Origin: Escherichia coli
GTDB lineage: Bacteria > Pseudomonadota > Gammaproteobacteria > Enterobacterales > Enterobacteriaceae
Assembly (NCBI RefSeq): GCF_003991155.1
Contig: NZ_CP031293.1
Length of the DNA stretch: 64,000 nt
Direction: 5' to 3' (one strand)
In this document: positions 1-6,170 of the stretch, one piece after another
Layout: each line of letters starts with the position of its first letter
How positions within the stretch are numbered: the stretch's first letter is position 1
Program-made: the position numbers and the translations under genes
Notes under the pieces: generated by a model
The model's database searches: none
The model's input: only the letters and a program-made list of their open reading frames with translations
Told to the model about the DNA's origin: nothing

Positions 1-363
1 GGCGGAAATCAACACCTTCTTCGCACCAGCATCAAGGTGCGCCTGCGATTTCTCGGCGGAGGTATAAAAGCCAGTACATTCGACAATGATTTCTGCGCCT
101 TTCGCTTTCCATGGAATATTTTTAGCCTCTTTTTCGGCGTAAACCGCGATACTTTTTCCATCAACGATAAGTGAATCTTCCGTAAAATCAACGCTCCAGG
201 GGAACGGTCCGTAGTTTGAATCATGTTTCAACAGGTAGGCGAGAATTTTTGGGGAAGTGAGATCATTAATAGCAACAATGTCTATGTTGCTTTTGACTTC
301 AAGTAATCGACGCAACACCAGTCGACCGATACGACCAAAACCGTTAATACCAACTTTACTCAT
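1..363 (-). CDS. gapC: Glyceraldehyde-3-phosphate dehydrogenase GapC, N-terminal part; gene continues beyond the window start (intact versus pseudogene cannot be judged here)
   Basis: Reverse-strand translation from ATG at 363 gives [23 protein letters not shown]..., the GAPDH NAD-binding N-terminus; frame stays open to position 1. Confidence 0.8.
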
Positions 364-551
364 GGTCTTCTCCTGTCAGGAACGTTCGGATGAAAATTGA
401 TCCTTTCCAGGCTTAGACCAGGATGGCGGGATGGGCAATCTACATTCTTGCCGTGAAACGTAACGTACTGAAAACGGGTGAACAATATTTAATGAAATTT
501 TAAGAAAAGCTCGTTATGTTAACGGAAAATTATGTTAAAGCAGGAAATGTT

Positions 552-1082
552 ATGGAAAGTAAATATTCAAGGTTACAAATCGGCATTCACTGGCTGGTCT
601 TTTTGCTGGTTATCGCAGCGTATTGCGCAATGGAGTTTCGTGGTTTTTTCCCACGTGGCGATAGGCCGCTTATCAACATGATTCATGTTTCCTGTGGCAT
701 CTCAATTCTCGTGCTGATGGTTGTTCGTCTTTTGTTAAGGCTTAAATACCCAACTCCGCCGATTGTACCTAAACCAAAACCGATGATGACGGGACTGGCG
801 CATTTGGGACATTTGGTGATCTATCTCCTGTTTATTGCGCTGCCAGTGATTGGTTTGGTGATGATGTATAACCGGGGCAACCCGTGGTCTGCGTTTGGTA
901 TGACAATGCCTTATGCAGCAGAGGCCAATTTCGAACGGGTTGATAGCTTAAAGTGGTGGCATGAGACGCTGGCGAATCTGGGATATTTTGTCATCGGGTT
1001 GCACGCTGCGGCTGCACTGGCACACCACTATTTCTGGAAGGACAACACACTTCTACGCATGATGCCGCGTAAACGTTCCTGA
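552..1082 (+). CDS. cybB: Cytochrome b561
   Basis: ORF 516..1082; internal start MESKYSRLQIGIHWLVFLLV chosen to give the 176-aa length; multi-TM haem-binding protein with conserved His. Confidence 0.9.
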   Translation: MESKYSRLQIGIHWLVFLLVIAAYCAMEFRGFFPRGDRPLINMIHVSCGISILVLMVVRLLLRLKYPTPPIVPKPKPMMTGLAHLGHLVIYLLFIALPVIGLVMMYNRGNPWSAFGMTMPYAAEANFERVDSLKWWHETLANLGYFVIGLHAAAALAHHYFWKDNTLLRMMPRKRS

Positions 1083-1092
1083 AGGATCTTTA

Positions 1093-1156
1093 AAGAAAAC
1101 GCCTGTACTAAAACCGACCCGCGGTACAGGCGAAGAGTACGGGCCTACATCGGAAG
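1093..1156 (-). ncRNA. rydC: RydC small regulatory RNA (Hfq-dependent, pseudoknotted)
   Basis: Minus-strand sequence cttccgatgtaggcccgtactcttcgcctgtaccgcgggtcggttttagtacaggcgttttctt in the cybB-ydcA intergenic region matches my recollection of RydC; contains the stem cctgtac/gtacagg and a terminal U-run. Confidence 0.7.
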
Positions 1157-1326
1157 CGCCTATTATATTTATTTGTATGACAAATAAAACCATAATCCTT
1201 GTCCATATGTCCATCTGGCTTATCTTTAATCAATTCACACGATCTTTGATCTCATCAACAGTATCAAAATAAACCAGCGTATAACGTTCAAATCGAACAT
1301 AAGATTCGATAAACCATGGAGGTTAT

Positions 1327-1500
1327 ATGAAAAAACTGGCACTTATCTTGGTTATAGGAGCGCTTGTTTCCTTTTATGCCGATGCCGGGCGCAAACCCTG
1401 TTCTGGTTCGAAAGGGGGGATCTCACACTGTACGGCAGGCGGCAAATTTGTCTGTAATGATGGTTCTATTAGTGCATCGAAAAAAACATGCACTAACTGA
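1327..1500 (+). CDS. ydcA: Small secreted protein YdcA (57 aa, signal peptide)
   Basis: ATG at 1327, MKKLALILVIGALVSFYADAGRKPCSGSKGG...KKTCTN, stop at 1498-1500; below the 60-aa cutoff of the ORF track. Confidence 0.75.
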   Translation: MKKLALILVIGALVSFYADAGRKPCSGSKGGISHCTAGGKFVCNDGSISASKKTCTN

Positions 1501-1571
1501 AGTGTAAAAGGGGTGCCATGAGAAAATGAATCTGCTAGTCAGATGCGCGGGGAAAATCCCCGCGCTTGCCC

Positions 1572-1779
<208 letters not shown>

Positions 1780-1820
1780 TCGTTGGCCTCGGTTTGTACT
1801 GACCCCAGAAAGTTGGACAG

Positions 1821-2672
1821 TTAAACACGAGGCATATAGGTCTGATTCCGATATTCAATTGGAGTCAGACCTTTTAATTTCAGGCTAATTCTTCTGCTGT
1901 TGTAGTATTCAATATATTCCGTAACAGCATCCTTCAGCTCGCTTATATTACTGAACTCATCAAGATAAAAACACTCCGACTTTAAGGTTCCAAAGAAACA
2001 CTCCACCACAGCATTATCCAGACAATTGCCTTTTCTGGACATGCTTTGTTTAATACCATGTTCTTTAAGGATATTTTGATATCTTCTCATACGATACTGC
2101 CATCCCTGGTCAGAGTGCAGAACAGGATGCTCGTGAGGATTAAGCTTTTTGAATGCCTGATCGAGCATATTCTCGACCATGTTCATCACTGGTCTTTCCG
2201 AAAGGCTGTAAGAAATAACTTCGTTGTTGAAGAGATCTATTACTGGAGACAAATACAGCTTGCGCCCATTGACTGCAAATTCAGTAACATCGGTAACCCA
2301 CTTCTCGTTTGGCCGCGTAGCCTTGAAATCTCTTTGGAGAACATTGGGGGCGGTTTGCCCTACCTCTCCTCTGTAAGAGCGGTATCGCTTGACCTTAATC
2401 GCTGCCTTCAGTGAGAGGATTCCCATCAGGCGCTGAACAGCTTTATGGTTAATCTGTTTCCCTTCTCGATGAAGAGACAGCGTTACCCTACGGTATCCGT
2501 ATCGGCCTCTATTCTCATGATAAATCTCACCAATACGCTTTTTAACGTCCGCATACTTGTCAGGCTTGCTGAGAGCCTTTAGATGGTAATAAAACGTACT
2601 GCGCGGTATCTCCGCAGCCCTGAGAAGCTCATCAAGAGGATAAAACTGCCTTAGCTCGTTGAGTACTTTCAC
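1821..2672 (-). CDS. insK: IS150 OrfB (InsK), DDE integrase-type transposase catalytic domain
   Basis: 283-aa ORF in the -1 frame relative to insJ, overlapping its 3' end; IS3-family catalytic domain. Confidence 0.9.
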
Positions 2673-3190
2673 TTTTTCGTGGGATGAGCTAAGGCTTTCA
2701 GCTTTTTTAGATACACAAGCCGCGTTTCAAGAAATCGAACTTGCCTTTCAAGATCCTCAATGCGTCGGTCTTTTGACAGCTCCAATGCTGATGCCGCTTT
2801 TTCTGGATCAACTGATATTGCAATGTTTCTTTTGGTGCCAATCTTGAGCGCGCGTAAACCAGCTTCTCCGCGCTCTTCATAAACCTTCAGCCACCTGGCT
2901 ACAGAACCACTACCAGCAAGCATAAAGTGAGCAGCAGCCTGATTAAGAGACATGTGCTGCTCGATCACAGCTTTCACGACCTTAATACGCAACTCAGGAT
3001 CAGCACTAACACCTTTAGGTTTGGGAATTAAACCTTTTTCTCCATGTTTTTCATAGAGGGCAACCCATGTCCTGACCTGGGTTCGGGGGACACCAAAACG
3101 TGCCGAGATGATCCTGTAACCATCATCAGTAGTGAAGTAGTGATTCACGACTTCAAGGCGCTTTTCAAAAGGGTATTTTGGCTTTGACAT
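2669..3190 (-). CDS. insJ: IS150 OrfA (InsJ), HTH DNA-binding transposase component
   Basis: 173-aa ORF MSKPKYPFEKRLEVVNHYFTTDDGYRIISARFGVPRTQVRTW..., recognised as IS150 InsJ. Confidence 0.9.
   Translation of the reverse strand: MSKPKYPFEKRLEVVNHYFTTDDGYRIISARFGVPRTQVRTWVALYEKHGEKGLIPKPKGVSADPELRIKVVKAVIEQHMSLNQAAAHFMLAGSGSVARWLKVYEERGEAGLRALKIGTKRNIAISVDPEKAASALELSKDRRIEDLERQVRFLETRLVYLKKLKALAHPTKK
2702..2708 (-). promoter_or_regulatory. Programmed -1 ribosomal frameshift heptamer A_AAA_AAG for InsJK fusion transposase
   Basis: Plus-strand cttttttag at 2702-2710 is AAAAAAG on the coding strand, inside the insJ/insK overlap. Confidence 0.7.
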
Positions 3191-3567
3191 ATCAGGGGCT
3201 ATTCCATTTCATCGTCCAACAAAATGGGTGCAGTACACAGTTGATAGAAATATTGGTCGGGGCCTTCGTCTTTCTGATTCCCGGTTAGCCTGAAAACAGA
3301 AAGTCTCAGGCACCCGTGAGCATCCTATGTGGTTTCCTTAAGGACGAAAATAATCACCTGACGAAATTGCGTGCTGTTTTCCAGAATTTTTCGTCATTCG
3401 GTTTAGCCAGTTTAATCATTCGTTACTCTCTTCATTCCAATGGCATTATTCTTCTCTGCCATAATTGTTGTAAAAATGTGACGCAAAGAGGTTTTTGGTC
3501 GTAAGAAATTACCGTCAAGTGCCGATGACTTTCTATCAGGAGTAAACCTGGAAGAGAGACAACGGTA

Positions 3568-5208
3568 ATGAATACAACTCCCTCACAGCGATTAGGTTTT
3601 TTGCATCACATCAGGCTGGTTCCGTTATTTGCCTGCATTCTTGGCGGTATCTTAGTTCTATTCGCATTAAGTTCTGCTCTGGCTGGCTATTTCCTCTGGC
3701 AGGCCGATCGCGATCAGCGTGATGTTACTGCGGAGATTGAGATTCGGACCGGGTTAGCGAACAGTTCAGATTTTTTGCGTTCAGCCCGGATCAATATGAT
3801 TCAGGCCGGGGCAGCGAGTCGTATTGCGGAAATGGAAGCAATGAAGCGAAATATTGCGCAAGCCGAATCGGAGATTAAACAGTCGCAGCAAGGTTATCGT
3901 GCTTATCAGAATCGACCGGTGAAAACACCTGCTGATGAAGCCCTCGACACTGAATTAAATCAACGCTTCCAGGCTTATATCACGGGTATGCAACCGATGT
4001 TGAAATATGCCAAAAATGGCATGTTTGAAGCGATTATCAATCATGAAAGTGAGCAGATCCGACCGCTGGATAATGCTTATACCGATATTTTGAACAAAGC
4101 CGTTAAGATACGTAGCACCAGAGCCAACCAACTGGCGGAACTGGCCCATCAGCGCACCCGCCTGGGTGGGATGTTCATGATTGGCGCGTTTGTGCTTGCC
4201 CTGGTGATGACGCTGATAACATTTATGGTGCTACGTCGGATCGTCATTCGTCCACTGCAAAATGCCGCACAACGGATTGAAAAAATCGCCAGTGGCGATC
4301 TGACGATGAATGATGAACCGGCGGGTCGTAATGAAATCGGTCGCTTAAGTCGTCATTTACAGCAAATGCAGCATTCACTGGGGATGACTGTAGGGACCGT
4401 TCGACAGGGCGCGGAAGAGATTTATCGTGGCACCAGCGAAATTTCAGCTGGCAATGCGGACCTGTCATCTCGCACCGAAGAACAAGCGGCGGCTATCGAA
4501 CAAACTGCCGCCAGCATGGAGCAACTCACTGCGACGGTGAAACAGAATGCGGATAACGCGCATCATGCCAGCAAACTGGCGCAAGAGGCTTCTATTAAAG
4601 CCAGCGATGGCGGGCAGATGGTTTCCGGTGTAGTAAAAACGATGGGCGCTATCTCCACGAGTTCGAAGAAAATTTCTGAGATCACCGCCGTCATCAACAG
4701 TATTGCTTTCCAGACGAATATTCTGGCACTGAATGCTGCCGTTGAAGCCGCGCGAGCGGGTGAGCAAGGGCGTGGATTTGCCGTTGTCGCCAGCGAAGTA
4801 CGGACACTCGCAAGCCGCAGCGCTCAGGCGGCGAAAGAGATTGAAGGCTTGATCAGTGAATCAGTCAGGTTAATTGACCTGGGATCGGATGAGGTGGCCA
4901 CGGCCGGGAAAACCATGAGCACTATTGTTGATGCCGTCGCGAGTGTCACACATATCATGCAGGAAATTGCCGCCGCCTCGGATGAACAAAGTAGAGGCAT
5001 AACGCAGGTTAGCCAGGCGATTTCTGAAATGGATAAGGTGACGCAACAGAATGCTTCTCTGGTAGAAGAGGCCTCAGCGGCGGCGGTGTCCCTTGAAGAA
5101 CAGGCGGCACGATTAACTGAGGCGGTGGACGTATTCCGTCTGAACAAACATTCTGTGTCGGCAGAACCTCGCGGAGCGGGTGAACCAGTTAGTTTCGCTA
5201 CGGTGTGA
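3568..5208 (+). CDS. trg: Methyl-accepting chemotaxis protein III (ribose/galactose sensor)
   Basis: 546-aa ORF; N-terminal TM, periplasmic domain, HAMP, and the conserved MCP signalling domain (...[15 protein letters not shown]...). Confidence 0.9.
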
Positions 5209-5217
5209 AAATGTTCA

Positions 5218-5240
5218 AGGAAGGGATCGACAGATCCCTT
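5218..5240. terminator. Hairpin between convergent trg and ydcI
   Basis: gaagggatcgacagatcccttc forms a perfect 8-bp stem immediately after the trg stop. Confidence 0.5.
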
Positions 5241-5246
5241 CACCTT

Positions 5247-6170
5247 TCAGAACGGCATTGATTTTCGAATAGCGTTAATCATCAACTGGCAACCAGAAGA
5301 GAACGTCGCATCTACGCGGGTCAGTATTCCAATCGGTTCGCCTGCACCATGTCCCGGAACAGGCAGGGCCACCAGCGTGGCATGACGCAGGTCGTCTTTT
5401 ACAGCGCCAGAAGGGACAAACCACACGTAGTCGTATTCAACCGTAAGTTGACGAGATAGCGAAGCAGACAGCGTTTCGATACAACCCGAAGGAATTTTAC
5501 ATCCCTGGCTCTGCACTAATGCATCTGAATGCTGGCGTGGCGCAGTGCCTTCTGGTGATACAACGACCGGCCATTCCAGCACCCGGCTTAGCGTTACGTT
5601 CTCCTGAAGTAGCGGATGATTGGGGCGGACAACCAGCTTCAGCGATTCAAGAAACAGCAGTTCGTAATTAAGCCCGGTCATCAGTTCAGGACCTGACATC
5701 CGACCAATGCCGATATCGATTTCCCCGGTTTTTAAACCCGCCAGAATCATAGGGTTACTCATTGTCGCAACTTGCAAGGTCGTCTCTTTTTGTTGCTGAT
5801 GAAACTGACCTATAACCGAAGGTAATATCCCCAGTGCCGCAGTAGGTAGTGCACCAACCCTGACGATATCATTATTAAGACCTTCTTTACGATGAAGCGA
5901 CTGTCCAGCAGTGTTGATGGCGTCAAGAACTCTGACTGCATGCGTTAAAAATTGTTCGCCGGGTAAGGTAAGTTGCGCCCCCTGACGACCACGCTCAAAC
6001 AAGCGAGCGCCCGTCAGCTGCTCCAGTTCATTCAATGTCTTAGAGAGCGCAGGTTGACTCAAATTAAGGGTTTCAGCCGCGCGCCCCAAAGTTCCTTGTT
6101 GTGCGACAGCTACGAATGTATGAAGGTGGCGCAAACGGATGCGCTGACTAAACAGACTATTTTTTTCCAT
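5247..6170 (-). CDS. ydcI: LysR-family transcriptional regulator
   Basis: ORF 5247..6311; start set at MEKNSLFSQRIRLRHLHTFVAV (ATG at 6170) to give about 307 aa; N-terminal HTH and LysR substrate-binding domain. Confidence 0.8.
   Translation of the reverse strand: MEKNSLFSQRIRLRHLHTFVAVAQQGTLGRAAETLNLSQPALSKTLNELEQLTGARLFERGRQGAQLTLPGEQFLTHAVRVLDAINTAGQSLHRKEGLNNDIVRVGALPTAALGILPSVIGQFHQQQKETTLQVATMSNPMILAGLKTGEIDIGIGRMSGPELMTGLNYELLFLESLKLVVRPNHPLLQENVTLSRVLEWPVVVSPEGTAPRQHSDALVQSQGCKIPSGCIETLSASLSRQLTVEYDYVWFVPSGAVKDDLRHATLVALPVPGHGAGEPIGILTRVDATFSSGCQLMINAIRKSMPF

Follow-up and report, generated by a model that had tools for sequence, protein, structure and literature searches.

A minority allele of the small RNA gene rydC at its known site between cybB and ydcA of Escherichia coli

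RydC is a small RNA described since 2005, and its targets and its repressor are known. A stable Hfq-dependent transcript of about 64 nt has been published for E. coli K-12 and for Salmonella (PMC4337610, PMC11340327), and a discrete 64-nt minus-strand RNA has been reported in K-12 (PMC11340327). A crystal structure of RydC bound to Hfq exists: the loop uridines U23/U24 and U46/U47 touch the rim of Hfq, the 3′ U tail binds its proximal face, and mutating G37 or G39 (helix 1) destabilises RydC (PMC4337610). The 5′ end of RydC pairs with the long cfa mRNA (212-nt leader) and masks an RNase E site, leading to more cyclopropane fatty acid synthase (PMC6755755, PMC4337610, PMC11340327); RNase E cuts this leader between G-100 and A-99 (PMC6755755). 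Modest effects are reported on trpE, pheA, csgD and yejABEF (PMC4337610, PMC11340327, PMC6755755). Transcription is repressed by YieP, about 20-fold in E. coli and 7.5-fold in Salmonella, and RydC is barely detectable unless yieP is deleted (PMC11340327). The YieP motif found by ChIP-exo is atTTGTaTGAcaAAT, and rydC and ydcA were among the genes chosen there for follow-up (PMC7642389). The small RNA ArrS also activates cfa, through an overlapping site in the long leader that protects the same RNase E site (PMC6755755). ArrS differs from RydC in that its sequence is unrelated, it is encoded at another locus (antisense to gadE, PMC6755755) and it has no pseudoknot; it is absent from the region analysed here.

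The window is the whole stretch of 64 kb that was analysed. It was scanned on both strands with the 4227 families of Rfam 15, and the E value below refers to this entire scan. The RydC family (RF00505) matches the minus strand from 1156 to 1093 over its full length (model positions 1-64 of 64) with 83.1 bits, against a gathering threshold of 48, and an E value of 1.1e-14. This match is far beyond chance. The minus strand of 1093-1156 reads CUUCCGAUGUAGGCCCGUACUCUUCGCCUGUACCGCGGGUCGGUUUUAGUACAGGCGUUUUCUU. A sequence-only reading had named this 64-nt minus-strand stretch RydC and had proposed a covariance-model search as the check; the full-length match, far over the curated threshold, bears out coordinates, strand and length exactly. 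The same reading had recognised a stem cctgtac/gtacagg and had taken it as part of the RydC pseudoknot. The stem exists, is slightly longer than claimed, and is one of the two interleaved helices described below. Every trait that defines RydC and is readable from sequence is present in this copy. At a probability of about 0.96, 1093-1156 is the chromosomal rydC gene of an E. coli strain, with its own sigma-70 promoter, a YieP-type operator, an H-type pseudoknot and the Hfq/cfa role. By analogy with the K-12 and Salmonella literature, this copy would be expressed, would bind Hfq, would be controlled by YieP binding and would act on cfa. The finding is correct but ordinary: a known small RNA sits in its known place. 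Two small minus-strand open reading frames overlap rydC (1053-1214, 53 aa; 1108-1233, 41 aa). They were rejected as unsupported; the RNA and its promoter explain the region fully.

The gene order was taken from the annotation transferred from NZ_CP029747.1 (strain 2016C-3878) and from the list of open reading frames of the window (Table 1). Strain 2016C-3878 matches bases 1000-1330 at 100% identity; nearly every other complete E. coli genome matches them at 95-99%. The placement between cybB and ydcA, also claimed from sequence alone, holds: both neighbours lie on the plus strand, and MG1655 has the ncRNA gene rydC (b4597) annotated in this gap with the same orientation. rydC is convergent with cybB, whose stop codon ends 10 nt short of the rydC 3′ end, and divergent from ydcA, from which it is separated by a promoter region of 170 bp. 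The locus is single-copy in 5415 of the 5426 complete E. coli genomes; the exact allele of 1093-1156 is a minority one (55/5415). On plasmid-labelled records, 5/5415 rydC matches were found; these could be mislabelled replicons or plasmid-borne chromosomal segments. The RefSeq pipeline leaves rydC unmarked in NZ_CP029747.1 and in all listed records except MG1655, while it marks rprA. The practical point is that automated annotation would show the cybB-ydcA gap as empty, because rydC is left unmarked. The rydC allele and the operator variants may help strain-to-strain comparison of RydC regulation; otherwise, the value of the finding is mainly one of annotation.

Table 1. Features of the rydC locus and neighbouring genes. 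Positions are those of the window; nt, position in RydC; negative numbers, position relative to the RydC start. Features are sorted by position.
Feature	Position	Strand	Basis
gapC/gap	ends 363	-	NZ_CP029747.1 annotation
cybB (cytochrome b561 / superoxide oxidase)	552-1082	+	ORF list; NZ_CP029747.1 and MG1655 annotation
rydC gene, 64-nt Hfq-dependent small RNA	1093..1156 (start 1156, end 1093)	-	RF00505 and MG1655 b4597 identity
3′ tail UUUUCUU, nt 58-64; terminator U tract and part bound by Hfq proximal face	1093..1099	-	sequence; role from PMC4337610
S2 3′ arm, nt 49-57, GUACAGGCG; with the U tail, rho-independent terminator of rydC	1100..1108	-	inverted repeat, pair counts
Loop uridines U46/U47, Hfq rim contact	1110..1111	-	present in sequence; role from PMC4337610
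S1 3′ arm, nt 35-41, GCGGGUC, holds G37 and G39	1116..1122	-	Rfam consensus structure, pair counts
S2 5′ arm, nt 25-33, CGCCUGUAC	1124..1132	-	inverted repeat; three compensatory pairs
Loop uridines U23/U24, Hfq rim contact	1133..1134	-	present in sequence; role from PMC4337610
S1 5′ arm, nt 12-18, GGCCCGU	1139..1145	-	Rfam consensus structure, pair counts
5′ single-stranded seed, nt 1-13	1144..1156	-	alignment; RNAduplex against cfa leader
-10 box TATAAT, -11..-6	1162..1167	-	sequence; invariant in 13 aligned copies; PMC11340327
Perfect 9+3+9 palindrome TTTATTTGT-ATG-ACAAATAAA, -12..-32; putative YieP operator	1168..1188	.	inverted repeat
ydcA	1327-1500	+	ORF list; NZ_CP029747.1 and MG1655 annotation
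yncP	between ydcA and hokB in listed order		NZ_CP029747.1 annotation
hokB	1572-1721	-	NZ_CP029747.1 annotation
IS150	between hokB and trg	-	NZ_CP029747.1 annotation
trg	3568-5208	+	NZ_CP029747.1 annotation

The structure was defined by the Rfam helix (S1) and by a perfect 9-nt inverted repeat (S2): CGCCTGTAC (1100-1108) and GTACAGGCG (1124-1132), with 15 nt between the arms. S1 pairs nt 12-18 with nt 35-41 and S2 pairs nt 25-33 with nt 49-57. The arms of the two helices interleave, and the structure is therefore an H-type pseudoknot. Each of the 7 + 9 pairs of this copy is a standard one. S2 consists of nine perfect base pairs, as in K-12; S1 consists of seven base pairs, including two G-U wobbles (G13-U40 and U18-G35), with -10.2 kcal/mol versus -10.5 kcal/mol in K-12. 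This copy has G37, G39, U23/U24, U46/U47 and the 3′ U tail, and Hfq binding would be expected from the literature. The pseudoknot would leave the 5′ end single-stranded and would offer the UU steps of the loops and the 3′ U tail to Hfq.

Conservation was read from an alignment of 13 copies (12 distinct sequences overall). Ten are from Escherichia: the window, MG1655, CFT073, one divergent E. coli, E. albertii, E. whittamii and four other lineages; the others are from S. enterica arizonae and two metagenome contigs. A scan of genome contigs with a pattern made of seed, S1 and loop gave 8 loci, without the main representatives of E. coli and S. enterica, though MG1655 fits the pattern. A metagenome scan built to exclude the E. 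coli type gave 2 loci. The 5′ seed CUUCCGAUGU, outside both helices, does not vary among the 13 aligned copies; nt 1-12 (CUUCCGAUGUAG) are the same in 13/13, Escherichia and Salmonella-type. Across the 12 distinct sequences, 97.5% of the cells of the two helices are paired, versus 25-43% in controls with the partners shifted by 1-3 columns. In S2, the three inner pairs show changes in both partners (UA/AU/CG to CG/GC/UA). In S1, the pairs that vary show one-sided changes only, with pairing kept. The covariation of S2 is thin and is essentially one lineage split, Escherichia versus Salmonella-type, because the alignment holds no Klebsiella, Citrobacter or Enterobacter copies.

The Salmonella-type copies (arizonae, L006; metagenome, L011 and L012) score 73-83 bits. 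They share with the window the seed, S1, TATAAT and the ATTTGTCATACAAAT palindrome. They differ in the inner three pairs of S2, which are GUAC/GUAC here and GCGU/ACGC there (compensatory), and in loops with one or two inserted bases, which make these copies 66 nt long. K-12 RydC (b4597; RF00505) shares position and orientation between cybB and ydcA, length, seed, the two pseudoknot helices, UU steps, U tail and -10 box. It is identical to the window copy at 61 of 64 positions. The differences are A13G (1144), U20C (1137) and A35G (1122) in the window copy, two of which turn Watson-Crick pairs of S1 (A-U, U-A) into G-U, and a promoter palindrome that is perfect here and carries a G-to-A change in K-12.

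Convergent genes often share one hairpin as a bidirectional terminator, and this general knowledge, together with the start of the inverted repeat 18 nt after the cybB stop codon, gives some ground for another explanation: the hairpin would be the terminator of cybB only, with no separate minus-strand RNA. The sequence-only reading had warned that the locus could be mistaken for a simple cybB terminator, a fair warning given this spacing. The same 10-bp hairpin is also predicted to form on the plus strand. There, however, it is followed by GAAGAGUACGGG, without a U run; the run of T belongs to the minus strand. With GAAGAGTACGGG and no T run after it, the plus-strand hairpin is therefore not a canonical cybB terminator; the terminator is on the minus strand only, where S2 and UUUUCUU would end rydC. 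Nor would a terminator without an RNA account for the 24 nt upstream of the hairpin that fit the RydC model, for the unvarying 5′ seed, or for TATAAT and the operator, which are conserved and positioned for a start at 1156. This explanation is extremely improbable. A shared hairpin in the rydC gene may have a secondary role in stopping cybB transcripts. A terminator scan found no plus-strand terminator at the rydC hairpin. It did not report S2 with its U tail, because it considers loops of 3-8 nt only and 15 nt lie between the S2 arms. Two small, overlapping hairpins within RydC (1131..1117 and 1134..1118) were reported; the scan's total of 4, versus 1.5 +/- 1.2 in shuffled sequences, was treated as not meaningful.

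A perfect TATAAT, read directly from the sequence and supported by its conservation, lies immediately upstream of 1156 (1167..1162); there is no recognisable -35. The published rydC promoter has the same architecture, TATAAT without a clear -35 (PMC11340327). The rydC promoter escaped a consensus scan, since the scan demands at least 4/6 matches in the -35 hexamer and there is no acceptable -35 here. As proposed, a sigma-70 promoter with this TATAAT would start minus-strand rydC at 1156, and transcription would stop at 1093.

The palindrome at 1168-1188 is the probable operator of the YieP repressor. Its core, 1171-1185 on the plus strand (ATTTGTATGACAAAT, -15..-29 of rydC), equals the published YieP motif. 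YieP, a GntR-family repressor, would keep rydC off by binding there; the operator overlaps the promoter spacer, so that repression would be by occlusion, a step that we infer. From the palindrome through the -10 box, the sequence is invariant from Escherichia to the Salmonella-type copies, except for a spacer base that is A or G and for the G-to-A change of the palindrome; upstream of the palindrome, conservation is absent among the 13 aligned copies. The G-to-A change (1181, in one half-site) is found in MG1655 and in one other lineage. The 44-nt promoter of the window, with the perfect palindrome, is identical in 3870/5415 E. coli genomes, and the palindrome is also perfect in the Salmonella-type loci. 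K-12 MG1655, in which YieP repression of rydC was studied, is a strain with G-to-A at 1181.

Seed nt 3-13 are predicted to pair with -109..-99 of the MG1655 cfa leader (UCUACGUCGGA) at -16.8 kcal/mol (RNAduplex), and the predicted duplex lies across the RNase E cut (G-100/A-99). Between strain 2016C-3878 and K-12, the cfa leaders differ only at -201, -181 and -144, and the RydC site is therefore intact in the matching genome. The change A13G turns just the terminal pair of the duplex into a wobble. None of the RydC targets listed in the literature lies within the window.

Of the three bases that set the allele apart from MG1655, C20 and G35 occur in this copy only among the 13 aligned ones; A35G also creates a CCGCGG palindrome at 1119-1124. 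The nested minimum free energy fold of the 64 nt has a z score of -1.03 and is not the native one. This unremarkable energy and the failure to recover the pseudoknot are expected, because the program cannot represent pseudoknots. Nested folding was therefore dropped as a test and pairs were counted on the alignment instead. The alternative nested fold is made of a helix 13-21/48-56 and a hairpin 24-31/35-43. It is predicted at -18.7 kcal/mol, versus -13.5 kcal/mol in K-12, and the mean pair probability of helix 13-21/48-56 in nested folding is 0.98 for this allele versus 0.18 for K-12. This preference arises from G13 and C20, through which nt 13-20 (GCCCGUAC) come to resemble the S2 5′ arm (GCCUGUAC) closely. 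The substitutions favour the nested fold, so that folding could differ somewhat from that of K-12 RydC.

A gene that is rydC by descent, with a G13/C20/G35 allele functionally impaired through nested misfolding, would agree with the rarity of the exact allele, with C20 and G35 being unique to it in the alignment and with an alternative helix of probability 0.98 in a fold 5.2 kcal/mol stabler than in K-12. All three changes are nevertheless compatible with the pseudoknot (A-U to G-U, U-A to U-G, one loop base), whose estimated energy (-21.8 kcal/mol, a crude value) is still lower than that of the alternative fold. S1 could also form co-transcriptionally, ahead of the synthesis of the 3′ arm of the alternative helix. 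Either fold keeps the seed unpaired and a hairpin before the U tail, and the Rfam score equals that of the Salmonella arizonae copy. Impairment of this allele is unlikely, and the chance that it explains the locus is put very low. It is also improbable that RydC of this lineage is bistable between pseudoknot and nested fold, the allele letting the terminator 3′ arm pair with either stretch, with stability or Hfq dependence altered.

Several other features of the window and of neighbouring loci were recorded. The gap gene (1-363, minus strand) encodes glyceraldehyde-3-phosphate dehydrogenase and is an intact CDS in 2016C-3878; gapC is a pseudogene in MG1655. A copy of IS150 (1795-3239, minus strand; transposase ORFs of 173 aa and 283 aa) lies inside the hokB/sokB toxin-antitoxin locus and is annotated as IS150 in the identical record. 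Window positions 1-1794 and 3240-6000 are contiguous in MG1655, with a 3-bp overlap that corresponds to the target duplication. The insertion is within sokB and the hokB mRNA leader; the hokB ORF is therefore separated from its promoter and leader. At 3161-3315, the Rfam sok match scores 62.5 bits; uninterrupted loci of other Escherichia reach about 110 bits. In two other Escherichia lineages, two tandem full-scoring sok matches are found beside rydC (L005, 1742-2389; L007, 1135-1783), with about 109-114 bits each and about 500 bp apart. This suggests a duplicated hokB/sokB-type module in these lineages; MG1655 has a single hokB/sokB locus and the window one sok match. A match to SECIS_3 was found at 59188-59246 (plus strand; 84.3 bits, gathering threshold 63). 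Provided that the window and NZ_CP029747.1 are collinear, this match lies inside fdnG, about 582 nt from its start, with UGA as codon 196, and is the selenocysteine insertion element expected for formate dehydrogenase-N.
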